Below, piece after piece: positions 1 through 17,240 of a stretch of 17,240 bases of DNA. The stretch's first letter is position 1. Each line of letters starts with the position of its first letter. The stretch lies in IMG/VR virus record IMGVR_UViG_2671180674_000015, positions 1-17,240 of that record; one strand, written 5' to 3'. The DNA comes from a virus. Lineage: Duplodnaviria > Heunggongvirae > Uroviricota > Caudoviricetes. The notes under the pieces are model-generated. The model ran no database searches, had not been told where the DNA came from, and saw only the letters and a program-made list of their open reading frames with translations. The translations under genes and the position numbers were made by a program.

Positions 1-360
1 GCCGTCCTGTTCCTGAGACAATACGGCACGACCACTGGCGGGCTTGCCCTTAATCGTCCAGCCACGCATATCAGGGATCACGCCTGACGGATAAGCAACT
101 GCAAGTTTCGGGTATGCAGATTTGTCAAAAGTCTGCCCCTGCATCAGGGCATAGCCAGACGGAACGGTATCTGATGGCCACGGGATTGGTGCGCCGACTG
201 GATAAAACTCTGCAGGAGGATGAGCCGAGGTGTAAAGCTGCGCCCACGGCGACCAGTTTGCGTCGATCGTATCCCGTCGTGAACGAATAAATGCCGGAGC
301 ATGAGCACCGCTTGTACCACTCCAGCCGATGAGTAACTCACCTTCGCCAACGGCTGTCAT
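1..360 (-). CDS. Phage side tail fibre protein, C-terminal region (tail-collar-like motif); probably a 5'-truncated remnant, 3' end beyond window start
   Basis: Minus-strand frame from ATG at 360 reads [24 protein letters not shown]...[52 protein letters not shown], with the tail-fibre collar motif YPxL...PDMRGW. The frame stays open upstream to a stop at 457-459. It is absent from the ORF track because it runs off the window. Confidence 0.5.
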
Positions 361-452
361 CCCTTTCAGGTGAATGATATTTCCATACGCTGTTGGATAT
401 CCGTTGTTATACACCTCGTATAAATAGTTTGAATGATTAGCAGTTATGGTGA

Positions 453-659
453 TCAGTCAACCACCAGGGAATAATCCTTCATATTATTATCGTGCTTCAC
501 CAACGCTGCCTCAATTGCTCTGAATGCTTCCAGAGACACCTTATGTTCTATACATGCAATTACAACATCAGGGTAACTCATAGAAATGGTGCTATTAAGC
601 ATATTTTTTACACGAATCAGATCCACGGAGGGATCATCAGCAGATTGTTCTTTATTCAT
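453..659 (-). CDS. ybcW: Small prophage protein of unknown function, DLP12 YbcW-like (68 aa)
   Basis: 68-aa ORF with ATG start, divergent from the ybcV-like gene and adjacent to bor, as in DLP12. Identification is from memory of the DLP12 gene order and size. Confidence 0.55.
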
Positions 660-944
660 TTTGTCGCTCCATGCGCTTGCTCTTCATCTAGCGGTTAAAA
701 TATTACTTCAAATCTTTCTGTATGAAGATTTGAGCACGTTGGCCTTACATACATCTGTCGGTTGTATTTCCCTCCAGAATGCCAGCAGGACCGCACTTTG
801 TTACGCAACCAATACTATTAAGTGAAAACATTCCTAATATTTGACATAAATCATCAACAAAACACAAAGAGGTCAGACCAGATTGAAACGATAAAAACGA
901 TAATGCAAACTACGCGCCCTCGTATCACATGGAAGGTTTTACCA

Positions 945-1355
945 ATGGCTCAGGTTGCCATTTTTAAAGAAATATTCGATCAAGTGCGAAAAGATTTAAA
1001 CTGTGAATTGTTTTATTCTGAACTAAAACGTCACAACGTCTCACATTATATTTACTATCTAGCCACAGATAATATTCACATCGTGTTAGAAAACGATAAC
1101 ACCGTGTTAATAAAAGGACTTAAAAAGGTTGTAAATGTTAAATTCTCAAGAAACACGCATCTTATAGAAACGTCCTATGATAGGTTGAAATCAAGAGAAA
1201 TCACATTTCAGCAATACAGGGAAAATCTTGCTAAAGCAGGAGTTTTCCGATGGGTTACAAATATCCATGAACATAAAAGATATTACTATACCTTTGATAA
1301 TTCATTACTATTTACTGAGAGCATTCAGAACACTACACAAATCTTTCCACGCTAA
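945..1355 (+). CDS. ybcV: DUF1398-family prophage protein, YbcV-like (136 aa from ATG 945; alternative in-frame starts ATG 903, GTG 822)
   Basis: ORF 822-1355. ATG at 945 is preceded by GGAAGG and gives 136 aa. Position next to bor matches DLP12. Confidence 0.6.
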
Positions 1356-1645
1356 ATCATAACGTCCGGTTTCTTCCGTGTCAGCACCGGGGCGTTGGCA
1401 TAATGCAATACGTGTACGCGCTAAACCCTGTGTGCATCGTTTTTAATTATTCCCGGACACTCCCGCAGAGAAGTTCCCCGTCAGGGCTGTGGACATAGTT
1501 AATCCGGGAATACAATGACGATTCATCGCACCTGACATACATTAATAAATATTAACAATATGAAATTTCAACTCATTGTTTAGGGTTTGTTTAATTTTCT
1601 ACACATACGATTCTGCGAACTTCAAAAAGCATCGGGAATAACACC

Positions 1646-1939
1646 ATGAAAAAAATGCTACTCGCTACTGCGCTGGCCCTGCTTATTACAGGATGTGCTC
1701 AACAGACGTTTACTGTTCAAAACAAACCGGCAGCAGTAGCACCAAAGGAAACCATCACCCATCATTTCTTCGTTTCTGGAATTGGGCAGAAGAAAACTGT
1801 CGATGCAGCCAAAATTTGTGGCGGCGCAGAAAATGTTGTTAAAACAGAAACCCAGCAAACATTCGTAAATGGATTGCTCGGTTTTATTACTTTAGGCATT
1901 TATACTCCGCTGGAAGCGCGTGTGTATTGCTCACAATAA
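1646..1939 (+). CDS. bor: Bor outer-membrane lipoprotein (serum-resistance lysogenic conversion protein)
   Basis: 97 aa, signal peptide with lipobox LITGC. Lies opposite to and just downstream of Rz, as lambda bor does. Confidence 0.85.
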   Translation: MKKMLLATALALLITGCAQQTFTVQNKPAAVAPKETITHHFFVSGIGQKKTVDAAKICGGAENVVKTETQQTFVNGLLGFITLGIYTPLEARVYCSQ

Positions 1940-1970
1940 TTGCATGAGTTGCCCATCGATATGGGCAACT

Positions 1971-2432
1971 CTATCTGCACTGCTCATTAATATACTTCTG
2001 GGTTCCTTCCAGTTGTTTTTGCATAGTGATCAGCCTCTCTCTGAGGGTGAAATAATCCCGTTCAGCGGTGTCTGCCAGTCGGGGGGAGGCTGCATTATCC
2101 ACGCCGGAGGCGGTGGTGGCTTCACGCACTGACTGACAGACTGCTTTGATGTGCAACCGACGACGACCAGCGGCAACATCATCACGCAGAGCATCATTTT
2201 CAGCTTTAGCATCAGCTAACTCCTTCGTGTATTTTGCATCGAGCGCAGCAACATCACGCTGACGCATCTGCATGTCAGTAATTGCCGCGTTCGCCAGCTT
2301 CAGTTCTCTGGCATTTTTGTCGCGCTGGGCTTTGTAGGTAATGGCGTTATCACGGTAATGATTAACAGCCCATGACAGGTAGACGATGATGCAGATAACC
2401 AGAGCGGAGATAATCGCGGTTACTCTGTTCAT
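1971..2432 (-). CDS. Rz: Rz i-spanin (inner-membrane spanin subunit)
   Basis: 153 aa from ATG 2432, which overlaps the endolysin stop in an ATGA arrangement. N-terminal TM helix and coiled-coil-like sequence; closely matches lambda Rz as I recall it. Confidence 0.85.
2030..2212 (-). CDS. Rz1: Rz1 o-spanin lipoprotein, embedded in the +1 frame of Rz
   Basis: 60 aa, lipobox VVVGC, proline-rich (PPPPP), wholly nested inside Rz. Confidence 0.85.
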
Positions 2433-2926
2433 TGCTGACCCCACAAACAGATTTCACGCTCAATCTCACGACGAGTCATGAGACCTTTCCATTGCTTACC
2501 GCCAGCATATGTCCAGCGACGTAGCTGATCACATGCGCCTTTGATATCGCCCTGGTTTATTTTGCGAAGAAGCGTCGATGTTCTGAAATTGCCAGCACCC
2601 ACGTTGTAAACGAATGAGTAAAGAGCGCCGCGCGTTGTTTCCGGTATATCGACTTTGATGTACGGGTTAATTTGTCTGGCGACAGTGGCAAGGTCTTTAT
2701 TCAAGAGTGCTTTGCATTCTGCTTTGGTATACGTTTTACCGAGCATGATGTCTTTTCCGGTGTGTCCGTGACATACAGTCCATACGCCAACGATATCTTT
2801 GTATGGTACGTAGCTGACACCTTCCAGACCATCGTTACCACTTGGGCCAGTGATTAACACTGATGCTATAGCAATTGCTCCGCCACCAATAGCAGCAGCA
2901 ACGGCTTTTCGTAATGATGGAGGCAT
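2429..2926 (-). CDS. R: SAR endolysin (T4-lysozyme-like muramidase, phage 21 R-type)
   Basis: 165 aa. N-terminal Gly/Ala-rich signal-anchor-release segment [16 protein letters not shown], followed by an E...D...T catalytic triad pattern. Start overlaps the holin stop. Confidence 0.85.
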
Positions 2927-3141
2927 TATTCACCTCTCGCAGCCTTGCGCTTATCTTCTTTAATCTTGAAATAAAGGTTTGTCAGGTACGTCAGCAGGCC
3001 AAATACCAGGCTACCCAGCACACCTATTGCTGCCCACTGTGAGGGCGTGACTTTATCGAGCAGCTGTAAAAACCAGTACCCGGCACTACCTGCTGAGGTG
3101 CCATAGGCGACACCCGTTGTTAACTTATCCATGGATTTCAT
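2926..3141 (-). CDS. S: Class II holin / pinholin (S21-type) with dual start motif
   Basis: 71 aa, MKSMDK dual-start (Met1/Met4) giving antiholin and holin forms, two TM segments. Sits immediately upstream of the SAR endolysin. Confidence 0.85.
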
Positions 3142-3257
3142 AACCCCACCTCGCAGACAAAGCGGGTGTAAATTGAGGGAATACTACGAAACGTAACAGA
3201 CTCGGAGTCAGTGAATAACTCAGGTATTGGGTTATCAGCTAATATCGAGACTCAAAA

Positions 3258-3292
3258 AATGGAAAAACCCGCTCGACGGCGGGTTTAAGCTG
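3258..3292 (-). terminator. Intrinsic terminator on the minus strand just upstream of the holin gene
   Basis: Minus-strand read AAACCCGC-CGTCGA-GCGGGTTT followed by TTCCATTTTTTG. Confidence 0.5.
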
Positions 3293-3714
3293 TGTGACGA
3301 AGTAACCACTCTTAACAGCATAACCAATTTTTTACGTACGTAAACCACTAAATGATATTTGCGAGAATGCTACCGAGTATTGAAAACACCACTACAAATA
3401 CATAAGCAAATCTCAACAAATAACCAACAAATAATTTCCAGCGTTATTTTTAGTCAATTTAAATTGAACCTTCAAATTATAGAGCACTTATAAATAACAG
3501 CCATTAATATAAATTGGCTAATAGATTTATTTTTATTCAGTCAAGAGCCATGAATAGGATTCGATAGAAAAAAGTTCAGATAAAAATAGAGATCTACTTC
3601 ACAAATCAAACGAGAAACCAAAACTTACATCTTGAAATATTCACATTGATTAGATGAATATTTATCGCGCAGTGACATCATTTTTTAATAATAGTTCAAA
3701 AAAAAGGGCTCACG

Positions 3715-4797
3715 ATGAAAAAATTAACAGTGGCAATTTCTGCTGTAGCTGCATCAGTACTGATGGCGATGTCTGCTCAGGCAGCTGAAATTTATAATAA
3801 AGACAGTAACAAGCTGGATCTGTACGGGAAAGTTAATGCTAAGCACTACTTCTCCTCTAATGATGCAGATGATGGTGATACTACTTATGCCCGTCTTGGC
3901 TTCAAAGGTGAAACCCAAATCAACGATCAACTGACTGGTTTCGGTCAGTGGGAATATGAATTCAAAGGCAACCGCGCTGAATCTCAAGGTTCCTCCAAAG
4001 ATAAAACCCGTCTTGCCTTCGCTGGCCTGAAATTCGGTGACTACGGCTCCATCGATTACGGCCGTAACTACGGTGTAGCATACGACATCGGTGCATGGAC
4101 CGACGTTCTGCCAGAATTCGGTGGCGATACCTGGACCCAAACAGATGTATTCATGACTGGTCGCACCACAGGTGTTGCAACTTATCGTAACAACGACTTC
4201 TTTGGTCTGGTTGATGGCCTGAACTTTGCAGCTCAGTATCAGGGCAAAAATGACCGAAATGAAGTAACTGAAGCTAATGGCGATGGTTTCGGTTTCTCAA
4301 CTACTTATGAGTATGAAGGATTCGGCGTGGGTGCAACCTATGCTAAATCTGATCGCACTAATAATCAGGTTATCTACGGTAACAACGGTCTGAATGCTTC
4401 TGGTCAAAATGCTGAAGTATGGGCAGCTGGTCTGAAATATGATGCGAACAACATCTATCTGGCCACCACCTATTCTGAAACCCAGAACATGACTGTTTTT
4501 GGTAATAACCATATTGCCAACAAAGCACAAAACTTCGAAGCTGTTGCACAATATCAGTTCGACTTCGGCCTGCGTCCATCCGTTGCTTACCTGCATTCTA
4601 AAGGAAAAGACTTGGGTGTTTGGGGTGATCAGGACCTGGTTGAATATGTTGATGTAGGTGCAACCTATTACTTCAACAAAAATATGTCCACTTTTGTTGA
4701 CTACAAAATCAACCTGATTGATAAGAGCGATTTCACGAAAGCATCTGGCGTTGCTACCGATGATATCGTTGCTGTAGGTATGGTTTACCAGTTCTAA
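3715..4797 (+). CDS. nmpC: Outer-membrane general porin, OmpC/OmpF family (NmpC/Lc-like prophage porin moron)
   Basis: 360 aa, signal peptide ending AQA|AE, porin-type beta-barrel with C-terminal Phe (VGMVYQF). Located antisense between Q and the holin, as nmpC is in DLP12 and lc in PA-2. Confidence 0.8.
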
Positions 4798-4811
4798 TTT
4801 GATTACTAAAA

Positions 4812-4893
4812 GATATGTTGTGGGAGGCTTTGCCTCCCCAACATATAAGTGGCTCCCTCAAGCCACTTCCTTTAGAAGCACAACCTTGCTTCT
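4812..4893. other. Cluster of three tandem stem-loops between the porin and Q 3' ends
   Basis: H1 ATATGTTGTGGGAGGC/ttt/GCCTCCCCAACATAT, H2 AAGTGGCT/ccctca/AGCCACTT, H3 AGAAGC/acaacctt/GCTTCT. On the minus strand H1 is followed by CTTTT (tR'-like). Confidence 0.45.
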
Positions 4894-4933
4894 AACTATA
4901 TAAACCTTCTGTTATATATTACCCTTTATTTTT

Positions 4934-4968
4934 GGGGGCGTTTCAACGCCCCATTTTTAATAACTTTT
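4934..4968 (+). terminator. Probable intrinsic terminator downstream of the porin gene
   Basis: GGGGCG/tttcaa/CGCCCC followed by ATTTTTAATAACTTTT on the plus strand. Confidence 0.45.
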
Positions 4969-4985
4969 AGTAAATAATTGGCGTA

Positions 4986-5369
4986 TTAATTAGAGTTATT
5001 AACAACGATATCCATCTCTAACCGGATATCTAATGCCATTAACATCCCTTCAATTATGCCCTCAGCCTTTTGTAACCTTTTCCCGATATAACCATCAGAG
5101 CAGCAATGCTTACCTGCCAGTGACATGAATGTCATACCGACTATATAATAATCTACTAATAAATCGTGCAAATCGCTGTTGTTCTTTTTCAGACGGGCCA
5201 TGCACCCGCAAATGATCATCGCGTCATCGTCACAACATTGCGGGCGAGATTTTACTTTTGAAGGAATTAATCCCTTAAAACCGGCGGCAATGGACGACCA
5301 GGTCACATCTTCATGATTATTAGCCGCCCACGCTCCCCAACGCTCAAGAACCATCTGAATATCACGCAT
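4986..5369 (-). CDS. Q: Late-gene antiterminator Q (phage 82 / DLP12 QuuD-type)
   Basis: ATG at 5369 (MRDIQ...) preceded by GGAG. The track's longer form starts at a TTG. Cys-rich putative zinc-binding region [12 protein letters not shown]. Sits between ylcG and the late/lysis region. Confidence 0.75.
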
Positions 5370-5454
5370 CAACTTACTCCACAAAAATCAGACCAAAACG
5401 CCAATTACAAGCAAAAATCAACAAAACAGTATTAGTTGATTGTTATCTCTGACT

Positions 5455-5595
5455 TCATACTCCTGCTCCTGTCAGGGTTTTGGCGTAACTCTTCAGTATT
5501 CGGTAATCGGTCAAAACAGAACCGGGGAAACGATATAAGCGCAGGCGCACCCAGCGGCGGCGAAGACGTTCTGCCATATAAGACTCAAACATCAT
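5455..5595 (-). CDS. ylcG: Small protein YlcG-like (46 aa), start overlapping the stop of the upstream RusA-derived ORF
   Basis: Reads [46 protein letters not shown], which resembles DLP12 YlcG from memory. Below the ORF-track size cut-off. Confidence 0.55.
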
Positions 5596-6395
5596 TCATC
5601 TCCCAGTTCAGTGATGGTCAGTTCCAGCCTCCCACCTTTGGTAACAGGCATCTTCACAACGCGGTAATCAACGACCTGAGCATCATCCAGCCAGAAACCT
5701 GCTTTGGTGAGTGCGTCAAAAGCGGCCTTTTGCAGATTATCCAGGTCACGGCGACGGCGATCCGGCATGTGGCTACCGCCCATGACAGGAAGTTGTTTTA
5801 CTGGTTCAGGGATCGCCTCACCACGGTTAATTCTCGCAGTCATATGGACAAGCTCATCTGCGGCCTTACGGCGTAATTCCGCATCAGTAAGCGCATTGGC
5901 CCGCATGTTCTGATACAGGTTGGTAACCAGCCAGTAGTGCGCGTTTGATTTCCACGGATAAGACTCCGCATCCGGATACAGGCCTCGCTTCCGGCAATAC
6001 TCGTAAACCATATCAACCAGCTCGCTGACGTTTGGCAGTCCGGCGATAACGGATGCTTCTTCCCGGCACCATGCAACAAACTGCCCGGGTGATGGCAGAA
6101 ATGGTCGATTCTGCCGACGGGCTACGCGCATTCCTGCGTTAACCTGTTCCATTGTGGTGATCCCGTTTTCCCGGAAAGCCAGAACCCACTGGCGGCGGAT
6201 TTCGTTCAGTTCGTTCTGGTCACGGTTAGCCAGACTCGCCGGGAAAGTTGCCAGTAACTGGCTGAACACACCGTTGATGATCTGCGCTACCTGCTGTACC
6301 TGCGGCTTTTCGTCGTACTGTTCCGGCATGTTGTTGGCGATCCGACTCATCTGCTCACGGTCAAAGTTAACCATCTGTGCGGCGATGTTTTTCAT
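5592..6395 (-). CDS. P: Replication protein P (N-terminal ~205 aa) fused in frame to the C-terminal ~60 aa of RusA Holliday-junction resolvase
   Basis: N-terminus [16 protein letters not shown]...[11 protein letters not shown] matches lambda P. The C-terminus [55 protein letters not shown] matches the RusA C-terminus. Junction near 5775. Confidence 0.75.
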
Positions 6396-7291
6396 AGATC
6401 CACCCCGTAAATCCAGTCTGTGTTTGTCAGGTCGAGTTTTGGTTTGCTGGCTGTCACGACTGCCTGTTGCTTGTTACGGTTGATTTCGAGCTGGGTCCAC
6501 TTGTCGCGGAGTTTGGCCGGGCTAAGCACGTTACCGGACCAGAAGTTGTCCTGGCATGCCCAGCGGAACAGCACGCACATGTCGCGGTGGTTACGTCCGT
6601 CACGTTCACGCATCAGGCGGATATCGTTAGCCCACCCTGCAAAATTCGGTTTTCTGGCTGATGGCGCGATGGTCTTCACCATGTCAAACATCCACTCTGC
6701 GGCGGTCAGGTCTTCTGCTGTCCCCCACTTGCTGCCGCTCTGAATTGCAGCATCCGGTTTCACCACAGAAAGGTCGTTTTCTGGCTGGTCAGAGGATTCG
6801 CCAGAATTCTCGGACGAATAATCTTTTCTTTTTTCTTTTGTAATAGTGTCTTTTGTGTCCCCCTGTTTTGAGGGATAGCAATCCCCCAATTTGAGGGATG
6901 TTTTATCCCTCGTTTTAGGGGATTTTCCCTCGTTTTGAGGGATACACCATTCTGAGATGTTTTTATTTGGTCCAAACATGCCGCCTTGCTGCTTGATAAT
7001 ATTCATTCTGACGAGTTCTAACTTGGCTTCATTGCACCGTTTGACAGGTAACTTTGTAATCTCGCTAAGTTGAGAATCGGTGATTCTGTCCATTGGTTTA
7101 TTCCACCCATAGGTTTTACGCAGAATGGCAAGCAGCACTTTAAACTGTCGCTTGGTCAGATCTGCGCCCGAATAAGCCTCAAGCAGCATATTTGATAGTC
7201 TGGCGTAACCATCATCGAGATCTGCCACATTACGCTCCTGTCCGGCAAAGTTACCTCTGCCGAAGTTGAGTATTTTTGCTGTATTTGTCAT
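6392..7291 (-). CDS. O: Replication initiator protein O (lambda-type)
   Basis: 299 aa; stop overlaps the P start (ATGA). Contains the iteron-encoding segment. Strong match to lambda O from memory. Confidence 0.9.
6806..6943. repeat. ori-lambda: four ~19-bp iterons plus adjacent AT-rich region, inside the O gene
   Basis: Direct repeats TCCCCCTGTTTTGAGGGAT, ATCCCCCAATTTGAGGGAT, ATCCCTCGTTTTAGGGGAT, TTCCCTCGTTTTGAGGGAT at 6857-6943, with an A/T tract at 6806-6856. Confidence 0.8.
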
Positions 7292-7301
7292 AATGACTCC
7301 T

Positions 7302-7378
7302 GTTGATAGATCCAGTAATGACCTCAGAACTCCATCTGGATTTGTTCAGAACGCTCGGTTGCCGCCGGGCGTTTTTTA
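7302..7378 (+). ncRNA. oop: OOP antisense RNA (antisense to the cII 3' end) with its intrinsic terminator
   Basis: Plus-strand GTTGATAGATCCAGTAATGACCTCAGAACTCCATCTGGATTTGTTCAGAACGCTCGGTTGCCGCCGGGCGTTTTTT matches my recall of lambda OOP. It overlaps the cII 3' end in antisense and ends in a hairpin plus T-run. Confidence 0.7.
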
Positions 7379-7620
7379 TTGGTGAGTCCATCAAGCGCAT
7401 ACTTAAAAGCCCTGCTAATCGGACTGATGTCTGATGCCATTCCGAAAGCACACAAGACCGAAGCAATAAATCTCCAGTCCGTTCTGCTTATCTTCGATTC
7501 ATGACAGCCAATCATCTTTGCCAGACCGCGCTGGGTAATAGCTGACAGATTGATAAGTAAATCTGTTTCTGCGCGATCAACGTCACGCTGTGATAGTTTG
7601 CTGTAACTTGTTCTTTCCAT
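7324..7620 (-). CDS. cII: CII transcriptional activator (mosaic: heterologous N-terminal part, lambda-like C-terminal tail)
   Basis: 98 aa. C-terminus LTNKKRPAATERSEQIQMEF matches lambda CII; the HTH region differs from lambda. Lies between cro and O. Confidence 0.75.
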   Translation of the reverse strand: MERTSYSKLSQRDVDRAETDLLINLSAITQRGLAKMIGCHESKISRTDWRFIASVLCAFGMASDISPISRAFKYALDGLTNKKRPAATERSEQIQMEF

Positions 7621-7705
7621 TTCTTAAGATTTCCAATAGTGAATAGTTAGTTGAAAGGTATGCGTGGAAACGCATATGGCCTTAGTTGGTCAGATATCTT
7701 GGAAC

Positions 7706-7751
7706 TCGCTTTTCAGCGACGTAGGACGAATGTCCGTTGTTACAAAGAGCG
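7706..7751 (-). promoter_or_regulatory. Putative nutR (boxA CGCTCTTTGTAACAA, intervening hairpin, boxB TCGCT-GAAA-AGCGA)
   Basis: Minus-strand boxA-like sequence 11 nt after the cro stop, then a 5-bp stem with GAAA loop. The same three-part layout recurs downstream of PL. Confidence 0.45.
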
Positions 7752-7761
7752 GATCCGCTTA

Positions 7762-7977
7762 TTAAGCGGCTTTGTGTTCCGGCGGGAACACGTCATCAAG
7801 ACTGACTTTTGCGCCTAACTTGTTTAGGCACGCAACAAGAGCACGGCATGTTTTAAGGTCTGGGAAGCGACGACCAGATTCCCAATGTCCGATAGCTCCC
7901 TGTGTGCATCCAACTGCCTTAGCAAGTGTTGTTTGAGAGATATTCAGTGACTCTCGATATTTTCGTAGGTTGCTCAT
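7762..7977 (-). CDS. cro: Cro-like HTH repressor (71 aa)
   Basis: ATG at 7977 preceded by GGAGGG. HTH segment QTTLAKAVGCTQGAIGHWESGRR. Divergent from cI across the operator region. The track's longer form overlaps the operators and was not used. Confidence 0.7.
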   Translation of the reverse strand: MSNLRKYRESLNISQTTLAKAVGCTQGAIGHWESGRRFPDLKTCRALVACLNKLGAKVSLDDVFPPEHKAA

Positions 7978-8088
7978 ATGCCCTCCATAGTAAACACGAA
8001 TAAAAAAATACAATATGTACTTTACGAATACAAGTAAAAATACATATTGTGCATGGATGGTTCCAGTACAAAGCGTAATAATAAGGAC
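7978..8088. promoter_or_regulatory. Divergent OR/PR/PRM region with three operator-like sites
   Basis: Sites at 8011-8022 (ACAATATGTACT), 8041-8052 (ATACATATTGTG) and 8066-8080 (AGTACAAAGCGTAAT) resemble the OL palindrome AGTACATATCGTACT. A -10-like TAATAT at 8077-8082 places a PRM start at about the cI ATG (leaderless). Confidence 0.5.
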
Positions 8089-8748
8089 ATGAAAATGAAA
8101 TGGTATGAACTGGCTAGATCCAGAATGAAAGAGCTCGGCATAACTCAAGAGAAGTTAGCCGAAGAACTAGGTATGACGCAGGGTGGGATTGGACACTGGT
8201 TGCGCGGATCTCGTCATCCATCTCTTAGTGATATTGGTGTGGTGTTTAAATACCTTGGTATTGATAACATATCATTCAACCACGACGGGACATTTTCACC
8301 TGTTGGCGAATACTCATCGGCCCCAGTTAAAAAACAATATGAGTACCCTGTTTTTTCTCATGTTCAGGCTGGGATGTTCTCTCCAGAACTCAGAACCTTT
8401 ACCAAAGGCGATGCGGAGAGATTGGTAAGCACAACCAAAAAAGCCAGTGACTCTGCATTCTGGCTTGAGGTTGAAGGTAACTCAATGACCGCACCAACAG
8501 GTTCCAAGCCCAGCTTTCCTGACGGGATGTTAATTCTGGTTGACCCTGAGCAGGCTGTTGAGCCAGGCGATTTCTGTATAGCCAGACTTGGTGGTGATGA
8601 GTTTACCTTCAAGAAACTGATCAGGGATAGCGGTCAGGTGTTTCTACAGCCACTAAACCCACAATACCCAATGATCCCATGCAATGAGAGTTGTTCCGTT
8701 GTGGGGAAAGTTATCGCTAGTCAGTGGCCTGAAGAGACGTTTGGGTGA
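8089..8748 (+). CDS. cI: CI prophage repressor, chimeric: heterologous N-terminal HTH domain with lambda-like linker and S24 autocleavage C-terminal domain
   Basis: From [17 protein letters not shown] through the C-terminal ...[12 protein letters not shown] it matches lambda CI (Ala-Gly cleavage site, Ser in GNSM, Lys in KKL). The N-terminal [24 protein letters not shown] is not lambda-like. ATG at 8089 (or 8095). Confidence 0.85.
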
Positions 8749-8794
8749 CAAGAAGCACAGGTATTAACAATAACTTTCATGGTGATACGAATCA

Positions 8795-9337
8795 GTGGCT
8801 AAAAAAGGCGACTTTAAGCCTACCCAGAAAGAGGTTGACCAAGCTATTACTCGCTTGAAAAAAGTAACTTTTAGCGGAGTTACATGGACCGGAAGTGAGG
8901 GACGAACCCCAATCTGGTTTAAATTGGATCTCAAAGCTTTTGATGAAATTGGCAACCCAATCACAGGCATAAGATTTATGCTTCACTGGCGTCCTCCTAT
9001 CGTTGAAGGGGTGGATATAGTGAAGATTTCATTTGTGATGTTTCTTCATGACAGGCGCATTTACGCGCTTGACCCGTACCCTGCGGATAACAAGCCACAC
9101 CGTAATAAATCTATAGTGAACCATCCAGATTTTGTTGAGGTGGCTCGAGGTCCTCACTATCACATGTACTTCGAATCAGCTGGGGAAGAAATTGCACTTA
9201 AGCTTGAAACGAACATCAAGCCAGATGATTTTTTTGGCTACTGGAATTATTTTTGCGAGGCGCTTAATATCATATATGAAGGCAGCCCACCTTTACCTAA
9301 TCAAGATAAATCAGGTCAGCTATCATGGGAAATGTAA
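8795..9337 (+). CDS. Hypothetical protein (180 aa), first gene of an unknown two-gene cassette in the rexA/rexB position
   Basis: ORF opens with GTG at 8795, 46 nt after the cI stop and with no intervening terminator. No motif I recognise. 3' end overlaps the next ORF by 13 nt. Confidence 0.55.
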   Translation: MAKKGDFKPTQKEVDQAITRLKKVTFSGVTWTGSEGRTPIWFKLDLKAFDEIGNPITGIRFMLHWRPPIVEGVDIVKISFVMFLHDRRIYALDPYPADNKPHRNKSIVNHPDFVEVARGPHYHMYFESAGEEIALKLETNIKPDDFFGYWNYFCEALNIIYEGSPPLPNQDKSGQLSWEM

Positions 9338-10101
9338 CGTGTTCAACAGTCATATCTAAGCTCGGGTTTGAATGCCACCCAATGAGCGACACGTTGCTGC
9401 GCGTTATTAGTCCCTTCACATACTACGATGATTGTGAGCAGATAAGTGTATTCGTTCAAGAGATGGGTGGTCAGTATAGGGTTACAGACTACTGCGATAC
9501 ATTGATGAATATTGAATCACGCGGCATCCACCTGACTAAAAAGAAAATTGATCTGATCAGGTCATCACTCGCTTCGCAAGGAATTTCATTAAATGACTCT
9601 GGAGAGATATCTGCGTGGGCAGATGAGTCGTCCGTTGGACAGGTAACTGCAAATGTTATTCGTGGTGGGATTCTTGCATCCGCCCAAACTGCTGATTGGT
9701 ATGCTGAGGTCAAAGACGATAAGTTCGAAAAATGTGTAATCAGTTACTTAAAATCAGCAGGGCTTGGGAAGCGACTAGCCTTAAAGGAAAAAGTGAAAGG
9801 TATTAGTGGGCATAACATTACTGTTCCGTTAACGCTAAGGAATGAGTCTCGACTAATACCACCAAAACGCGGGTTTACGGTAAGCCTTGCCAGCAGTAAG
9901 GGATGGAATACTGCCCACTCAACAGTTGGGAAGATTGTTGACTTAAGTCAGGTCGTTCCTGACATAAACAATAGATTTGTAATAGTTGACAGCGATGGGT
10001 TAACACCTGAGCTACAGCAACTATCACTACTATTTAATGATACCGCACGAGTGTTGCCATTCCATACCAGAGACTCTTGGATTGAGTCTCTGGTAGCCTA
10101 G
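9325..10101 (+). CDS. Hypothetical protein (258 aa from ATG 9325; alternative ATG 9382), second gene of the cassette
   Basis: Long ORF overlapping the upstream ORF's stop, followed directly by a strong terminator. No recognised catalytic motif. Confidence 0.55.
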   Translation: MGNVTCSTVISKLGFECHPMSDTLLRVISPFTYYDDCEQISVFVQEMGGQYRVTDYCDTLMNIESRGIHLTKKKIDLIRSSLASQGISLNDSGEISAWADESSVGQVTANVIRGGILASAQTADWYAEVKDDKFEKCVISYLKSAGLGKRLALKEKVKGISGHNITVPLTLRNESRLIPPKRGFTVSLASSKGWNTAHSTVGKIVDLSQVVPDINNRFVIVDSDGLTPELQQLSLLFNDTARVLPFHTRDSWIESLVA

Positions 10102-10133
10102 AAAAACCCGGCCTCAGCGCCGGGTTTTCTTTG
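10102..10133 (+). terminator. Intrinsic terminator after the immunity-region cassette (t-imm-like)
   Basis: GAAAAACCCGGC-ctcagc-GCCGGGTTTTCTTTG starting right after the TAG stop. Confidence 0.65.
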
Positions 10134-10305
10134 CCTCACGATCGCCCCACCTAAAAACACATAACCAATTGTATTTATTGAAAAATAAATAGATGCAACC
10201 CACTAAACCACGCAATTCTGATCTCTCCTTACATCGCCGAGGCAATACATCCACGCTAAAAAACAACACTATTAAATACAAAGCGTTATAAAAAACCACG
10301 CCAAC

Positions 10306-10356
10306 TTACAACAAATTGTATTGATCTTGTAAAGTACATATCGTACTATTTAACCG
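10306..10356 (+). promoter_or_regulatory. PL promoter with OL operator(s)
   Basis: -35 TTGATC (10321-10326), 17-nt spacer, -10 TACTAT (10344-10349). Palindromic operator AGTACATATCGTACT (10333-10347) overlaps the spacer and -10; a second related site is at 10311-10322. Confidence 0.5.
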
Positions 10357-10394
10357 TCAGCAGGACGCTGGAAGCCAAATGGAACAGACTGGCA

Positions 10395-10440
10395 GGCTCT
10401 TTAAACAACGTCGACTCTCGACTACGTGGCTGAAAAGCCA
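10395..10440 (+). promoter_or_regulatory. Putative nutL (boxA GGCTCTTTAAACAA, intervening hairpin GTCGA-ctc-TCGAC, boxB TGGCT-GAAA-AGCCA)
   Basis: BoxA-like sequence about 40 nt downstream of the predicted PL start, then a 5-bp stem with GAAA loop. Architecture parallels the nutR candidate. Confidence 0.45.
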
Positions 10441-10538
10441 GATCACCCAACCACATAAGCTGTGGGATGCAATGCCGAAGCAACCGTCTCAGGAGGAGCT
10501 TCGAGATTGCATCGCCAAAGTTTATTCGGGAGGAATCC

Positions 10539-10811
10539 ATGTCCAGAAAAACAGAATTTAAAGGCACCGCAGCTTCTCGCCGTAGAGCTCGTCGCGCAAA
10601 TCTGCAAAGTCAGGAGGCGATCAGCTCCGACAAGCTACACAGGCCAACCCCTTCACGAGTGGTCTTGCAATGCAAGCGCAAACCAGCAATGAGAGCAGAA
10701 GTGATAACTCTGACAACGTTGACCAGAAAATATGAAGGTTCAACTTGTCTTCCGAACGTAGCTCTTTACGCGGCAGGCTACCGGAAATCAAAACAACTGA
10801 CGGCGAGATGA
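10539..10811 (+). CDS. N: N-type transcription antiterminator (arginine-rich motif; P22 gene 24-like C-terminus)
   Basis: 90 aa from ATG 10539 with RBS GGGAGGA. N-terminal ARM GTAASRRRARRA; C-terminal ...LPNVALYAAGYRKSKQLTAR. First gene downstream of PL and nutL. Confidence 0.75.
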   Translation: MSRKTEFKGTAASRRRARRANLQSQEAISSDKLHRPTPSRVVLQCKRKPAMRAEVITLTTLTRKYEGSTCLPNVALYAAGYRKSKQLTAR

Positions 10812-10827
10812 TAAATTCATTTGCTAA

Positions 10828-11409
10828 TTACTTGTTTTTGCCATGCTTATCCTGAGCGATAAGTTCATCCATAAGGCTGTCTGCCTTCCCGGCAAACCGA
10901 ATGTAGCACTCATTTCTATAGCGTTCCGGGATAACAAAACGGTCGATTTCAGGATATCCAGTAGCAGAAGGTATCCGAATAAGAAGCCCTTTTTCGAGCA
11001 ATGAGATTGCTTCAGGGCTTCCCTTTTCTGTCTTTAGCTGGTTATTCGCGGCTACAGCGAATGCCAAATACGCTCTTTCTCCAAGAGTTAACGAATCAAA
11101 CAAATCTTGCACATATTTTTCTTCTTTAGATTTGCGCTTCTGAGCAGCGGATACCTCAATTCTTTCAGTCACAGCGTGATAAGCGGAATTAACAACACCG
11201 TTAAGCACATAGCTAACGCAGAACAACAGGATGTAATACATCCAATAATAAGGAAGGATTTCTGGATTATGCAGGTTTATCCATTCTTTTACGCTTACCG
11301 GCATAACAATAATCAATATGATCAGGATGATTAGCATATGAATCAACTGTTTAAGTGTCATTCCTTGCAGGAAAAAATGCATTAGTTCCTGCCACCATGA
11401 GTTGTTCAT
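10828..11409 (-). CDS. sieB: Superinfection exclusion protein B (SieB)-like membrane protein
   Basis: 193 aa, hydrophobic N-terminal segment LIHMLIILIILIIVMPV. Convergent with and directly abutting N, as lambda sieB is. Confidence 0.7.
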   Translation of the reverse strand: MNNSWWQELMHFFLQGMTLKQLIHMLIILIILIIVMPVSVKEWINLHNPEILPYYWMYYILLFCVSYVLNGVVNSAYHAVTERIEVSAAQKRKSKEEKYVQDLFDSLTLGERAYLAFAVAANNQLKTEKGSPEAISLLEKGLLIRIPSATGYPEIDRFVIPERYRNECYIRFAGKADSLMDELIAQDKHGKNK

Positions 11410-11552
11410 CGGCGTTTCTCTTTTGCTCTCTGTAGGGGTGAATAGAGTTTATCCGATTTCTCGCTGTAGGGGTACACGAGAACCACCGAGCCTGATGTGG
11501 TTAAAAGACAGGCACAATCTTTACTACCGCAATCCACTATTTAAGGTGATAT

Positions 11553-11639
11553 ATGGAAGAAGAATTTGAAGAGTTCGAAGAGCATCCTCAGGATGTGATG
11601 GAACAATACCAGGACTATCCGTATGACTACGACTATTGA
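11553..11639 (+). CDS. Small acidic ORF (28 aa), lambda orf28-like
   Basis: Reads MEEEFEEFEEHPQDVMEQYQDYPYDYDY. Its 3' end overlaps the ral start. Confidence 0.4.
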   Translation: MEEEFEEFEEHPQDVMEQYQDYPYDYDY

Positions 11640-11823
11640 TAAAAATCAATGGTGTGGACAATTCAAGCGATGCAATGGATGCAAGCTGCAATCGGAATGC
11701 ATGGTTAAGCCTGAAGAAATGTTTCCTGTAATGGAAGATGGGAAATATGTCGATAAATGGGCAATACGAACGACGGCAATGATTGCCAGAGAACTTGGTA
11801 AACAGAACAACAAAGCTGCCTGA
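11623..11823 (+). CDS. ral: Ral restriction-alleviation protein
   Basis: 66 aa, MTTTIDKNQWCGQFKRCNGCKLQSEC..., matches lambda Ral from memory; lambda gene order. Confidence 0.8.
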   Translation: MTTTIDKNQWCGQFKRCNGCKLQSECMVKPEEMFPVMEDGKYVDKWAIRTTAMIARELGKQNNKAA

Positions 11824-11957
11824 TAGTGGCCTTTATTTTTGGCATAAATAACAGAATAAACACTGCACTGTGTATTCATTCCAACGAGTGAATACACGGA
11901 GCAATGTCGCTCGTAACTAAACAGGAGCCGACTTGTTCTGATTATTGGAAATCTTCT

Positions 11958-11986
11958 TTGCCCTCCAATGTGAGGGCGATTTTTTA
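11958..11986 (+). terminator. Candidate intrinsic terminator or attenuator upstream of ea10 (tL2-like)
   Basis: GCCCTC-caatgt-GAGGGC followed by GATTTTTTA. Confidence 0.45.
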
Positions 11987-12005
11987 TCTGTGAGGATATG
12001 AACAG

Positions 12006-12374
12006 ATGTCAAACATCAAAAAATACATCATTGATTACGACTGGAAAGCATCAATAGAAATTGAAATCGACCATGACGTAATGACAGAGGAAAAACTTCA
12101 CCAGATTAATAATTTCTGGTCAGACTCTGAATACCGACTCAATAAACACGGCTCTTTATTAAATGCTGTATTAATCATGCTGGCGCAACATGCTCTGCTT
12201 ATAGCAATTTCAAGCGACTTAAATGCATATGGTGTTGTGTGTGAGTTCGACTGGAATGATGGAAATGGTCAGGAAGGATGGCCTCCAATGGATGGTAGCG
12301 AAGGAATAAGAATTACCGATATCGATACATCAGGAATATTTGATTCAGATGATATGACTATCAAAGCCGCCTGA
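12006..12374 (+). CDS. ea10: Ea10-like protein
   Basis: 122 aa, RBS GAGGA, located between ral and cIII as in lambda. Confidence 0.65.
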   Translation: MSNIKKYIIDYDWKASIEIEIDHDVMTEEKLHQINNFWSDSEYRLNKHGSLLNAVLIMLAQHALLIAISSDLNAYGVVCEFDWNDGNGQEGWPPMDGSEGIRITDIDTSGIFDSDDMTIKAA

Positions 12375-12446
12375 GCGCTGCGTTACCGCATACCAATAAC
12401 GCTTCACTCGAGGCGTTTTTCGTTATGTATAAATAAGGAGCACACC

Positions 12447-12611
12447 ATGCAATATGCCATTGCAGGGTGGCCTGTTGCTGGCTGCTCTTCCGAATCTTTA
12501 CTTGAACGAATCACCCGTAAATTACGTGACGGATGGAAACGCCTTATCGACATACTTAATCAGCCAGGAGTCCCAAAAAATGGATCAAACACTTATGGCT
12601 ATCCAGACTAA
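12447..12611 (+). CDS. cIII: CIII (FtsH inhibitor that stabilises CII)
   Basis: 54 aa, [54 protein letters not shown]. Below the ORF-track cut-off. Confidence 0.8.
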   Translation: MQYAIAGWPVAGCSSESLLERITRKLRDGWKRLIDILNQPGVPKNGSNTYGYPD

Positions 12612-12723
12612 ATTCACTATCGCCACTTTTATTGGCGATGAAAAGATGTTTCGTGAGGCCGTCGACGCTTATAAAAAATGGATATTAATACTGAAACTGA
12701 GATCAAGCAAAAGCATTCACTAA
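12580..12723 (+). CDS. kil: Kil (host cell-division inhibitor)
   Basis: 47 aa, [47 protein letters not shown]; overlaps the cIII 3' end and the gam 5' end. Confidence 0.75.
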
Positions 12724-13094
12724 CCCCCTTTCCTGTTTTCCTAATCAGCCCGGCATTTCGCGGGCGATATTTTCACAGCTATTTCAGGAGTTCAGCCATG
12801 AACGCTTATTACATTCAGGATCGTCTTGAGGCTCAGAGCTGGGCGCGTCACTACCAGCAGATCGCCCGTGAAGAGAAAGAGGCAGAACTGGCAGACGACA
12901 TGGAAAAAGGCCTGCCCCAGCACCTGTTTGAATCGCTATGCATCGATCATTTGCAACGCCACGGGGCCAGCAAAAAAGCCATTACCCGTGCGTTTGATGA
13001 CGATGTTGAGTTTCAGGAACGCATGGCAGAACACATCCGGTACATGGTTGAAACTATTGCTCGCCACCAGGTTGATATTGATTCAGAGGTATAA
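12678..13094 (+). CDS. gam: Gam (RecBCD inhibitor)
   Basis: 138 aa, near-identical to lambda Gam from memory; internal start MNAYYIQ for the short form. Confidence 0.9.
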
Positions 13095-13099
13095 AACGG

Positions 13100-13885
13100 A
13101 TGAGTACAGCACTCGCAACGCTGGCAGGGAAGCTGGCTGAACGTGTCGGCATGGATTCTGTCGACCCACAGGAACTGATCACCACTCTTCGCCAGACGGC
13201 ATTTAAAGGTGATGCCAGCGATGCGCAGTTCATCGCATTGTTGATCGTCGCCAACCAGTACGGCCTTAATCCGTGGACGAAAGAAATTTACGCCTTCCCT
13301 GACAAGCAGAACGGCATCGTTCCGGTGGTGGGCGTTGATGGCTGGTCCCGTATCATCAATGAAAACCAGCAGTTTGATGGCATGGACTTTGAGCAGGACA
13401 ATGAATCATGTACATGCCGGATTTACCGCAAGGACCGTAATCATCCGATCTGCGTTACCGAGTGGATGGATGAATGCCGCCGCGAACCATTCAAAACCCG
13501 CGAAGGCAGAGAAATCACCGGACCGTGGCAGTCGCATCCCAAACGGATGTTACGGCATAAAGCCATGATTCAGTGTGCCCGTCTGGCCTTCGGATTTGCT
13601 GGTATCTATGACAAGGATGAAGCCGAGCGCATTGTCGAAAATACCGCATACACTGCAGAACGTCAGCCGGAACGCGACATCACTCCGGTTAACGATGAAA
13701 CCATGCAGGAGATTAACACTCTGCTGATTGCCCTGGACAAAACATGGGATGACGACTTATTGCCGCTCTGTTCCCAGATATTTCGCCGCGACATTCGCGC
13801 ATCGTCAGAACTGACACAGGCCGAAGCAGTGAAAGCTCTTGGATTCCTGAAACAGAAAGCCTCTGAACAGAAGGTGGCTGCATGA
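13100..13885 (+). CDS. bet: Bet (Red-beta single-strand annealing protein)
   Basis: 261 aa, matches lambda Bet. Confidence 0.9.
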
Positions 13886-14562
13886 CACCGGACATTATCC
13901 TGCAGCGTACCGGGATCGACGTGAGAGCTGTCGAACAGGGGGATGATGCGTGGCACAAATTACGGCTCGGCGTCATCACCGCTTCAGAAGTTCACAATGT
14001 GATAGCAAAACCCCGCTCCGGAAAGAAATGGCCTGACATGAAAATGTCCTACTTCCACACCCTGCTTGCCGAGGTTTGCACCGGTGTGGCTCCGGAAGTT
14101 AACGCTAAGGCGCTGGCCTGGGGAAAACAGTACGAGAACGACGCCAGAGCCCTCTTTGAGTTCACTTCCGGCGTGAATGTTACTGAATCCCCGATCATCT
14201 ATCGCGACGAAAGTATGCGCACCGCCTGCTCTCCCGATGGTTTATGCAGTGACGGCAATGGCCTTGAACTGAAATGCCCGTTTACCTCACGGGATTTCAT
14301 GAAGTTCCGGCTCGGTGGTTTCGAGGCCATAAAATCGGCTTACATGGCCCAGGTGCAGTACAGCATGTGGGTGACACGAAAAGATGCCTGGTACTTTGCC
14401 AACTATGACCCGCGTATGAAGCGTGAAGGCCTGCATTATGTCGTGATTGAGCGGGATGAAAAGTACATGGCGAGTTTTGACGAGATGGTGCCGGAGTTCA
14501 TCGAAAAAATGGACGAGGCACTGGCTGAAATTGGTTTTGTATTTGGGGAGCAATGGCGATGA
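13882..14562 (+). CDS. exo: Exo (lambda exonuclease, Red-alpha)
   Basis: 226 aa, matches lambda Exo; start overlaps the bet stop. Confidence 0.9.
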
Positions 14563-14741
14563 AGCATCCTCACGATAATATCCGGGTAGGCGCGATCACT
14601 TTCGTCTACTCCGTTACAAAGCGAGGCTGGGTATTTCCCGGCCTTTCTGTTATCCGAAATCCCCTGAAAGCACAGCGGCTGGCTGAGGAGATAAATAATA
14701 AACGGGGAGCTGTATGCACAAAGCATCTCCCGTTGAGTTAA
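14553..14741 (+). CDS. Lambda orf60a-like small protein
   Basis: 62 aa; start overlaps the exo 3' end; lambda-like position. Confidence 0.55.
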
Positions 14742-14905
14742 GAACGAGTATCGAGATGGCACATAGCCTCGCTCAAATTGGAGTCAGGTTTGTGCCAATT
14801 CCAGTAGAAACAGACGAAGAATTTCATACGTTAGCCGCATCCCTTTCACAAAAGCTGGAAATGATGGTGGCGAAAGCAGAAGCAGATGAGAGAGACCAGG
14901 TATGA
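14714..14905 (+). CDS. Lambda orf63-like small protein
   Basis: 63 aa, overlaps neighbouring ORFs; lambda-like position. Confidence 0.55.
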   Translation: MHKASPVELRTSIEMAHSLAQIGVRFVPIPVETDEEFHTLAASLSQKLEMMVAKAEADERDQV

Positions 14906-14985
14906 CAACCACTGAATGCATTTTTCTGGTAGCGGGCTTCATATTCTGTGTGCTTATGCTTGCCGACATGGGACTTGTTCAATGA
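14902..14985 (+). CDS. Hydrophobic micro-ORF (27 aa), start and stop overlapping the flanking genes
   Basis: Reads MTTTECIFLVAGFIFCVLMLADMGLVQ; ATGA overlaps at both ends. Confidence 0.3.
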   Translation: MTTTECIFLVAGFIFCVLMLADMGLVQ

Positions 14986-15197
14986 CACCTCAGCAAGAAA
15001 ACGCCCTTCGCAGTATTGCCCGTCAGGCTAATTCTGAAATCAAAAAAGCCAGACAGCAGTTTCCGGATAAAAACGTCGATGACATTTGCCGTAGCGTACT
15101 GAAGAAGCACCGCGAAACGGTAACGCTGATGGGATTCACACCGACTCATTTAAGCCTGGCGATCGGCATGTTAAACGGCGTCTTTAAGGAACGGTGA
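14982..15197 (+). CDS. Lambda orf61-like small protein (alternative longer start at ATG 14916)
   Basis: Reads MTPQQENALRSIARQANSEIKKARQQF...; lambda-like position. Confidence 0.5.
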   Translation: MTPQQENALRSIARQANSEIKKARQQFPDKNVDDICRSVLKKHRETVTLMGFTPTHLSLAIGMLNGVFKER

Positions 15198-15217
15198 GCA
15201 TGAAAAACAAAATCATC

Positions 15218-15243
15218 ATGGAGCTACAGGCTCCTTTTTTATT
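15218..15243 (+). terminator. Weak intrinsic terminator candidate
   Basis: GGAGC-tacag-GCTCC followed by TTTTTTATT. Confidence 0.35.
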
Positions 15244-15295
15244 ATTCGCATTCACCCTCAAGCGTATTAACCAACAATTCAGGGATTAATGAAAG

Positions 15296-15517
15296 ATGGC
15301 AGACATCATTGATTCAGCATCAGAAATTGAAGAATTACAGCGCAACACAGCAATAAAAATGCGCCGCCTGAACCACCAGGCTATATCTGCCACTCATTGT
15401 TGTGAGTGTGGCGATCCGATAGATGAACGAAGACGCCTGGCCGTTCAGGGTTGTCGGACTTGTGCAAGTTGCCAGGAGGATCTGGAACTTATCAGTAAAC
15501 AGAGAGGTTCGAAGTGA
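15296..15517 (+). CDS. TraR/DksA-family C4 zinc-finger protein (lambda orf73-like)
   Basis: 73 aa with CxxC...CxxC (CCECGD ... CRTCASC), typical of TraR/DksA C4 fingers. Confidence 0.7.
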   Translation: MADIIDSASEIEELQRNTAIKMRRLNHQAISATHCCECGDPIDERRRLAVQGCRTCASCQEDLELISKQRGSK

Positions 15518-15727
15518 GCGAAATTAACTAGAAGACAAAGATAAAATCATCGCTGAGCAGGAGAAAATCGCTAACGGAGAAAAGACAGTAAGTCAGTATA
15601 TGAAAACCGCATGATATCATCAGATAAAAATCGATCGTAAAGCGAAATATTAATACCAGAATAAACGAGTCGAGGTAAATTATATTACCTCGATAAATTA
15701 ACTAAAACTTGCCCGCTATATACTATC

Positions 15728-16330: not shown

Positions 16331-16572
16331 TACTTACTGCACAATAATACACAAAATTGCGTAAATTTTTTGCATGGATTTTAGCTCTTTCAGCCGACGT
16401 TTAAGGGGTAAATAGCATTTCCTAAAAGCAACTGCACCAACCCAACAGAATGAGCTACCGCTTACGTTGAGAGCAAAAAAGTGTATAGCAGCAATGAACA
16501 GCATCCTCGCACTGACGGGGATTTCTTTTATCTGAGCTCGTTACGGCGAGTTTTGTTTTATGGAGACAAGAA

Positions 16573-16917: not shown

Positions 16918-17039
16918 CCCGCCTCACACTCGATGAGGCCTGTTCATTTCTCAAGATATCCAGACCTACCATTGCTGCATCAATGCGGCTTTTTATTGCC
17001 TGATTTGCAGGTTCGATTCCATATTCGGAGATAGCACTC

Positions 17040-17240
17040 ATGCAACACGAACTACAACCTGATTCACTGGTTGATTTGAAATTCATCATGGCTGATACTG
17101 GCTTCGGTAAGACCTTCATCTATGACCGGATTAAGTCCGGCGACCTGCCTAAAGCCAAAGTTATCCACGGACGAGCAAGATGGTTATATCGTGACCATTG
17201 TGAATTCAAAAATAAGCTCTTAAGCCGCGCCAATGGGTAA
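17040..17240 (+). CDS. AlpA-family excisionase / transcriptional regulator-like protein
   Basis: 66 aa, RBS GGAGA. Reads like a small winged-helix AlpA/Xis-type protein (TGFGKTFIYDRIKSGDLPKAKVIHGRARW). Positioned where xis lies in lambda. Confidence 0.55.
   Translation: MQHELQPDSLVDLKFIMADTGFGKTFIYDRIKSGDLPKAKVIHGRARWLYRDHCEFKNKLLSRANG

Follow-up and report, generated by a model that had tools for sequence, protein, structure and literature searches.

A truncated side-tail-fiber gene joined to the ybcW flank as the very probable scar of a late-region deletion in a defective lambdoid prophage at argW

How did the distal part of a side-tail-fiber gene come to lie directly beside ybcW in a lambdoid prophage? 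This question is raised by the left end of the DNA analyzed here, positions 1-17,240 of the IMG/VR record IMGVR_UViG_2671180674_000015 (17,240 nt, the whole of which is referred to below as the window). We conclude that the truncated fiber gene, stf', is very probably the scar of an illegitimate, microhomology-mediated deletion in a lambdoid prophage integrated at argW, the site of KplE1/CPS-53. The element is an ordinary defective lambdoid prophage, a case of ordinary prophage decay with a previously unrecorded breakpoint. The references used were phage lambda (J02459), the stf gene of Escherichia coli AH21 for the fiber (3075 nt, encoding 1024 aa) and, for the numbering of endpoints, the stf gene at L002:7512-10586 (minus strand). 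Pfam assignments for many genes of the window were made on the identical genes of a sister record, L004.

Read from position 459, the minus strand presents a stop, 12 codons unrelated to fibers and then 141 stop-free codons from 423 to 1, and stf' runs on for 488 nt past the left edge of the window, as read in L004/L154. The original prediction, made from the letters alone, had taken this frame for the C-terminal region of a tail fiber with a collar motif; Pfam confirms the collar, and the comparison with lambda Stf and Rac StfR that it proposed was positive. Specifically, the fragment is 91% identical to residues 70-137 of lambda orf-314 (the C-terminal half of Stf), and its continuation is 70% identical to the rest of orf-314. 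Fragment and continuation together share 78% identity with residues 876-1120 of Rac StfR and 99% with residues 725-1024 of AH21 Stf. The open reading frame (ORF) in L004/L154 counts 300 aa if begun at a GTG and 282 aa if begun at the first ATG, and its C-terminus is NIAFNYIVRLA as in lambda Stf; on direct reading of the sequence, neither candidate start has a good ribosome-binding context. The window shows the proximal half of the remnant, while the true C-terminus and tfa lie beyond its left edge. The C-terminal region with His-rich repeats, ending in NAENTVKNIAFNYIVRLA, is therefore outside the window and present in the continuation, its last residues being identical to those of lambda orf-314/StfR.

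What the remnant has lost is the N-terminal tail-attachment domain together with the shaft, as the homology to AH21 stf begins at nt 2164 and upstream of this point stands the ybcW flank. The remnant stf' is a gene fragment and not a functional member of the Stf/StfR family. Its DNA shows no decay relative to the intact allele. Gene tfa is intact, a 194-aa ORF that overlaps the stf' stop, matches PF02413 (E = 5.4e-45) and is 94% identical to lambda Tfa. No terminator-like site was found between ybcW and stf' (424-452), so late transcripts would run into stf' and tfa. The role of the pair would most likely be passive, as a homology substrate for recombination with infecting lambdoid phages. Lambda gains markers from the stf-tfa regions of Rac and Qin by recombination at about 2 × 10^-6, and marker uptake from the lysis-cos region of DLP12 is ~100-fold more frequent than from stf-tfa (PMC3945230).

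Concerning the junction, tail-fiber DNA begins 29-32 nt past the ybcW stop, with nothing between. The fiber remnant had been predicted to abut lysis-accessory genes; the abutment stands, and the label has to be changed, as ybcW, ybcV and bor are accessory genes of the late operon and not lysis genes. The three shared nucleotides of the joint (Table 1) sit at the 5' foot of a 7-bp hairpin of stf (GTTATAC-GAGGT-GTATAAC). On the ybcW side, window positions 421-1400 show 100% identity to DLP12-like prophages and 99.8% to lambda 46997-47976, and the longer stretch 421-2432 aligns with lambda 47976-45966 at 99.7%; on the fiber side, positions 2-195 align with lambda 21438-21245. In lambda terms, 47976 is joined to ~21017, the fiber-side breakpoint being given by extrapolation. 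The 3-nt microhomology, in the absence of an insertion sequence (IS) or a recombinase site, points to illegitimate recombination.

Gene ybcW and stf share one strand and keep the order they have in lambda, so one simple deletion suffices to explain the arrangement. Such a deletion would span from 32 nt past ybcW to stf nt 2163. Expressed in lambda coordinates, 47977-48502 and 1-~21016 would have been lost, that is 526 + ~21,016 = ~21.5 kb, and slightly more than 21.5 kb with the longer AH21-type stf, in agreement with the roughly 20 kb or more that had been predicted. It would have removed cos, Nu1, A, W, B, C, Nu3, D, E, FI, FII, Z, U, V, G, T, H, M, L, K, I, J and lom, as well as the first ~721 codons of stf, namely the N-terminal 70% including the part that attaches the fiber to the tail. 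Searches with tblastn and tblastx detected no homologues of Nu1, A, W, B, C, D, E, FI, FII, Z, U, V, G, H, M, L, K, I, J or lom in the window or L154, and cosN was not found in the element. Across the window and the stretch from argW to the cI region, the full set of lambda late proteins and the late regions of two other lambdoid prophages matched nothing besides tfa and the C-terminus of stf. The packaging, head and tail genes said in the original prediction to be missing are indeed missing, and none was met in a rearranged position in these regions. Intact prophages with the normal gene order occur in E. coli WI2 and Z1323HEC0475. Incomplete prophages have been reported to lose terminase, portal and structural genes preferentially and to be enriched in tail-fiber genes (PMC7744054), and the loss pattern in this prophage is typical of them.

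The element measures ~24.6 kb and can be read end to end via the sister contig UCWK01000031.1, which reaches 10 kb further left. This leftward extension, which had been suggested as a check, yielded the rest of stf', the intact tfa, three cargo genes, intS, a 16-bp core and argW. The complete order is attL-argW, intS, the three cargo genes, tfa, stf', ybcW, ybcV, bor, Rz-R-S, porin, Q, 'rusA::P' and O, followed by the early arm with cII, cro, a repressor of the cI type, N, sieB, ral, cIII, kil, gam, bet and exo, then by torI and, as placed by synteny, attR. To the left of the cargo genes are a tyrosine integrase of 385 aa (intS-sized), then the KplE1 core CTGCAGGGGACACCAT, which adjoins the integrase and overlaps tRNA-Arg(CCT), i.e., argW, and then yfdC. 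KplE1 is known to reside at argW with this same core, TorI being its directionality factor (PMC2951348). With argW, core and integrase on the stf side and TorI on the other, the prophage occupies the KplE1/CPS-53 site. No copy of the lambda att core GCTTTTTTATACTAA occurs in the window, so the element is not at att-lambda despite its lambda-like early region. From these sequences, the lambda-like early arm appears to be grafted onto a KplE1 recombination module. Homology to prophages of the att-lambda type ends near 16575, and positions 16575-17240 contain instead a 114-aa gene and torI, the last window position being the end of the torI stop codon. In K-12, L017 and other genomes, a second att core follows 74-89 nt past torI, and then dsdC. 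The anatomy and junction of the element were observed directly, as were its place of integration and the lack of cos and of structural genes. The loss of cos and the placement of a ~24.6-kb element at argW/KplE1 are additions to the earlier reading.

Table 1. Position of the junction, the fiber remnant and the principal retained genes (window coordinates, except for the last row).
Feature	Position	Strand	Evidence and remarks
stf' (5' part of the truncated side-tail-fiber gene)	1..423	-	100% DNA identity to AH21 stf nt 2164-2586, residues ~722-862; open frame
Phage tail collar domain (Collar, PF07484) inside stf'	52..195	-	Pfam E = 3.2e-12, score 46.7 bits (cut-off 24); residues 77-124 of the 141-aa fragment
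Putative deletion junction	421..423		TAA (TTA on the coding strand) common to both parents; three-way alignment of window, AH21 stf and ACN002 ybcW flank
Retained 3' flank of ybcW	424..452	-	Equivalent to lambda 47945-47973
ybcW (68 aa)	453..659	-	Homologue of lambda ORF 47738-47944; carries the ybcW annotation in genomes of 100% identity; final gene of the late operon ahead of the putative deletion
ybcV (DUF1398)	945..1355	+	Pfam PF07166, E = 1.5e-46
bor (serum-resistance lipoprotein)	1646..1939	+	PF06291 on the identical L004 gene; annotation in relatives
Intact lysis cassette: holin 2926-3141, lysozyme 2429-2926, Rz-type endopeptidase 1971-2432	1971..3141	-	PF04971, PF00959, PF03245 on the identical L004 genes
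Intact porin gene (nmpC/ompC-like moron, 360 aa)	3715..4797	+	PF00267, PF13609; porin/OmpC annotation in relatives
Late antiterminator Q (quuD-type)	4986..5369	-	PF06530
P::RusA fusion ORF (267 aa)	5592..6395	-	Pfam Phage_lambda_P and RusA
torI (KplE1/CPS-53 excisionase)	17040..17240	+	66/66 residues shared with K-12 TorI; marks the attR end
Three cargo genes (517, 213 and 355 aa)	L154 11859-15965 (left of the window, between tfa and intS)		No convincing family

Such a joint could in principle be an assembly chimera of two repeated prophage regions, all the more as both of its sides are multi-copy in E. coli and it was present in none of the complete genomes searched (the ybcW flank and stf' halves are adjacent in 0 of 5,426 complete E. 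coli genomes). However, the P::RusA protein of the window, used as a marker, led to the NCBI contig UCWK01000031.1 (GCA_900479185.1, 66 kb), in which a single base of 16,395 nt differs from the window and the junction is reproduced without change. Because of that one difference it is a separate record. The junction sits in the middle of this contig, with collinear flanks of >7 kb and 16 kb on its two sides and with no N-run or repeat at the joint, and its recurrence there makes a chimera very unlikely, to the point that we give this explanation next to no weight. Exact-match scans for the junction gave no matches in GTDB representative genomes, JGI metagenomes and IMG/VR, a type of scan by which prevalence is not measurable. 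The junction is a rare, lineage-specific and probably recent event. A hybrid formed by illegitimate recombination between two resident prophages, one of which gave ybcW-torI and the other stf'-intS, instead of an internal deletion, is improbable. It would fit the fact that the nearest relatives differ between the arms, being att-lambda prophages (for example that of WI2) and lambda itself for the early and lysis arm, AH21 for stf', and Z1323HEC0475 for tfa with the 517-aa cargo gene, in a species with a median of two copies of the stf segment per genome. Yet different best matches are to be expected anyway from mosaic lambdoid phages, the order and strand of the genes are exactly those of a single lambdoid prophage, and the intS/argW and torI modules both belong to the KplE1 recombination system; moreover, an event between two prophages would also delete or invert the chromosome lying between them. 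The reading that we prefer, a microhomology-mediated deletion in one argW prophage, has its own points to answer. The two arms could derive from different prophages, and the closest relatives of both are already deleted in the late region (nohD::J' in AH21, A'::tail-tip' in ACN002). A single deletion and successive deletions are indistinguishable, the step number not being recoverable from the sequence, and the ~21.5 kb may be the sum of several steps; both this number and the mechanism of deletion are what we infer from the anatomy. The junction is rare and its support consists of two nearly identical assemblies. Finally, the attR core is expected ~75-90 nt past the window end, where it is placed by synteny outside the analyzed sequence, and all phenotypes attributed to the element are deduced.

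The position of the breakpoint within stf raises the further possibility that fiber genes of this type break preferentially here. The first examples came via a single 282-aa ORF call in contigs, which is biased to truncations at nt ~1915-2227; the breakpoint sample consisted of 80 IMG/VR loci chosen solely by a 21-mer downstream of the region, plus complete genomes. At least 12 junction classes with different left partners end at stf nt 2114-2121 (GGTCGGG/TAACCGCGCTGACAG; loci L025, L026, L028, L032, L033, L047, L052, L054, L065, L068, L080, L081, L100, L104 and L110), independence of the classes being judged by their differing left partners only. In lambda coordinates these partners are Nu1 ~719 (K-12 Qin), A 880, A 955, B 3476, E 6325, E 6988, L 13979 and J 16143; the others are a non-lambda portal, a non-lambda tape measure and two that were not assigned, one of them with a distant portal-like match. 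They share 2-9 nt of microhomology with the stf site, often imperfect. A second recurrent endpoint is found at nt 2183/2184, an IS3 end abuts nt 2173, and intact mosaic stf genes change type at nt 2104, 2144, 2167 and 2184 (L058, L106 and H105; L029 and L030; L062, L086 and L105). The window junction (nt 2164) is inside this ~80-nt zone (nt 2104-2184), ~45 nt from the site at nt ~2120, and over nt 1-2335 of the sampled loci only one truncation falls outside the zone, in L039 at nt 1909, with an unassigned left partner.

Several causes of the clustering were tried and rejected. Site-specific recombination of the Pin/Hin kind is not indicated, as no AAACC-NN-GGTTT-type site was found at the stf breakpoints, in Qin or in Rac, whereas the e14 pix control was recovered. 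The DNA fold of the zone is not significantly unusual (z = -1.2) and consists of the 7-bp hairpin only, and no IS terminus was found as a mechanism. Ascertainment through the 282-aa call cannot be the sole cause, since it cannot give 12 classes within 8 nt in a sample selected by the 21-mer. The derivation of L080, junction to junction, from the E308 structure was ruled out on reading the sequence. As side observations, the reverse complement of the hot site, GCGGTTA^CCCGACCT, loosely resembles lambda cosN, a resemblance that we judge unsupported. In K-12 Qin and Rac, a 21-24-nt imperfect inverted repeat (75% complementary; L032 4522-4542 and 6641-6661, L008 8014-8037 and 10097-10120) lies on either side of the segment comprising the stf C-terminus, tfa and pin; this repeat, possibly what remains of an invertase site, is unrelated to the deletion hot site.

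On this basis the junction of the window could be assigned to an stf breakpoint hotspot, at which site-directed breakage, the action of a recombinase on quasi-sites or template switching with a fixed end within the zone would recurrently yield prophages devoid of head and tail genes and endowed with the receptor-binding module and tfa. We consider this rather unlikely. The dozen or more classes at nt 2114-2121, the further endpoints and mosaic switches in the same zone, and the location of nt 2164 inside it and at the foot of the hairpin all speak in its favor; but the endpoint at 2164 is known with one left partner only and lies 45 nt from the main site, neither a canonical Pin/Hin crossover site nor an extraordinary fold accompanies it, and the short microhomologies are compatible with ordinary illegitimate recombination. 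Besides, the selection bias of the 282-aa ORF (nt 1915-2227) is mostly, though not fully, removed by the IMG/VR sample, and classes told apart by their left partner do not establish phylogenetic independence. The wider proposal, which we put forward tentatively and hold to be doubtful, is that stf of this allele type possesses a nucleotide-precise deletion hotspot (nt ~2120, the near-palindrome CGGG/TAACCG, with minor sites at 2164-2184) able to join almost any upstream late gene. It might then be a main route to those E. coli remnants that have lost head and tail and kept the receptor-binding module and tfa; the junction of the window, nohA::stfQ' of Qin and B'::stf' at the DLP12 locus would be products of one process, and the zone would coincide with a module boundary in intact mosaic fibers. 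The clustering is reported here as unexplained and is separate from our verdict on the fiber stump, for which a microhomology-mediated deletion at argW is the explanation that we retain.

Comparison with known prophages places the element among its relatives. DLP12 of E. coli K-12 has the same Q, porin, lysis, bor, ybcV and ybcW block (gene order quuD-nmpC-essD-rrrD-rzpD-borD-ybcV-ybcW-ylcI-nohD-aaaD'-tfaD) and the same type of deletion, in which the start of the late operon is joined to the end of the tail fiber (aaaD'::tfaD). However, ylcI, cos, nohD and a stump of the terminase persist in DLP12, whose deletion stops within tfa, whereas here the deletion starts 32 nt past ybcW, takes cos and nohD, ends in stf and leaves tfa whole. 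DLP12 is located at argU without immunity and Red genes, and the present element at argW with both. In Qin (K-12, nohA::stfQ'-tfaQ-pinQ) a packaging gene likewise runs directly into the last third of an stf belonging to the same allele type (98% identity), and tfa comes next. Its joint is Nu1 ~719 to stf nt 2120, the recurrent site, against ybcW flank to stf nt 2164 in the window, and Qin has the Pin invertase downstream, which this element lacks. KplE1/CPS-53 of K-12 (argW-intS ... torI-dsdC) shares the site and the recombination module only, with TorI at 100% identity, an intS-sized integrase at argW and the core CTGCAGGGGACACCAT. It measures 10.2 kb and is devoid of repressor, lysis and Red functions, unlike the ~24.6-kb element with immunity, Red and lysis; its yfdL, considered as a homologue of the stf stump, showed no similarity. 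Lambda presents 98-99.7% DNA identity to the window over Rz-bor-ybcV-ybcW, O-P and ral-to-exo, the collar and C-terminus of Stf are conserved, and the gene order of lambda and of the lambdoid prophages of WI2 and Z1323HEC0475 matches that of the element. Compared to lambda, the element is also without ren-nin and differs in its immunity specificity, Q, holin and lysozyme, and integration module. As to the defective att-lambda prophage of AH21, its stf is 100% identical in DNA over window 1-423 and is followed by tfa, and it has the nohD::J' fusion, but it keeps the full stf of 1024 aa, lom', J' and nohD, has neither ybcV nor ybcW and is at a different chromosomal site.

Apart from the deletion, the element had been described as a cryptic prophage with a P::RusA fusion that keeps its immunity, recombination and conversion genes, and our data agree: the repressor, cro, cII, N, exo/bet/gam, sieB, ral, bor and the porin gene are present. 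In the fusion, residues 1-207 match lambda P and residues 208-267 are 95% identical to residues 61-120 of K-12 RusA, in frame. It marks a second internal deletion in which ren, the nin genes and the 5' half of rusA are gone. The exact protein is recorded in seven contigs and several E. coli accessions. Pfam matches on identical genes cover CII, O, P, N, Gam, RecT (bet), YqaJ (exo), Kil, CIII, SieB, Ral and the S24 repressor, and cro is also retained. The C-terminal S24 peptidase part of the repressor (8338-8748, plus strand) has 95% DNA identity to lambda cI, whereas its N-terminal DNA-binding part and cro are not lambda-like, which indicates a hybrid immunity region. Between the repressor and N, in the place of rexAB in lambda, two overlapping genes (8795-9337 and 9325-10101, plus strand) encode a 180-aa protein and a 258-aa DUF1828 protein, with weak PADLOC matches to the candidate defense pair PDC-M24A (E = 4e-4) and PDC-M24B (4e-7). 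The porin gene is split by IS5 in DLP12 of K-12 and by an IS4-family element in WI2, and is whole in the window. Among the three cargo genes, nothing significant was obtained for the 517-aa and 213-aa proteins (PADLOC, NCBIfam) or for the 355-aa protein (NCBIfam), the sole matches being to sigma-70 region 4 at E ~ 1e-3. In the 517-aa protein, part of the N-terminus is weakly similar to sigma-70 region 4 and the C-terminus is Cys/His-rich, and its gene also stands 3' of tfa in the otherwise intact prophage of Z1323HEC0475. The three genes may form a defense island.

Judging from its gene content, the element should be unable to form particles. With cos lost, it would not be packaged by a helper of the lambda type, and with P fused to RusA the replication module would be damaged and replication impaired. 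Even so, repression and an SOS response may persist, as may excision by IntS and TorI, and expression of Q may still bring about lysis. The finding would thus show how a domesticated argW prophage of ~24.6 kb was disabled, with no particles and no packaging, while the repressor, the exclusion genes (sieB and the candidate defense pair), Red, bor, the porin and a lysis cassette that looks functional were kept. This is of relevance for predicting inducibility, phenotypes of lysis without phage, and recombination with incoming phages. The wider interest lies mainly in a side result, the clustering of breakpoints in stf. If a mechanism lies behind it, this would explain the over-representation of tail-fiber ends in cryptic prophages (PMC7744054), and prophage domestication would become experimentally tractable.

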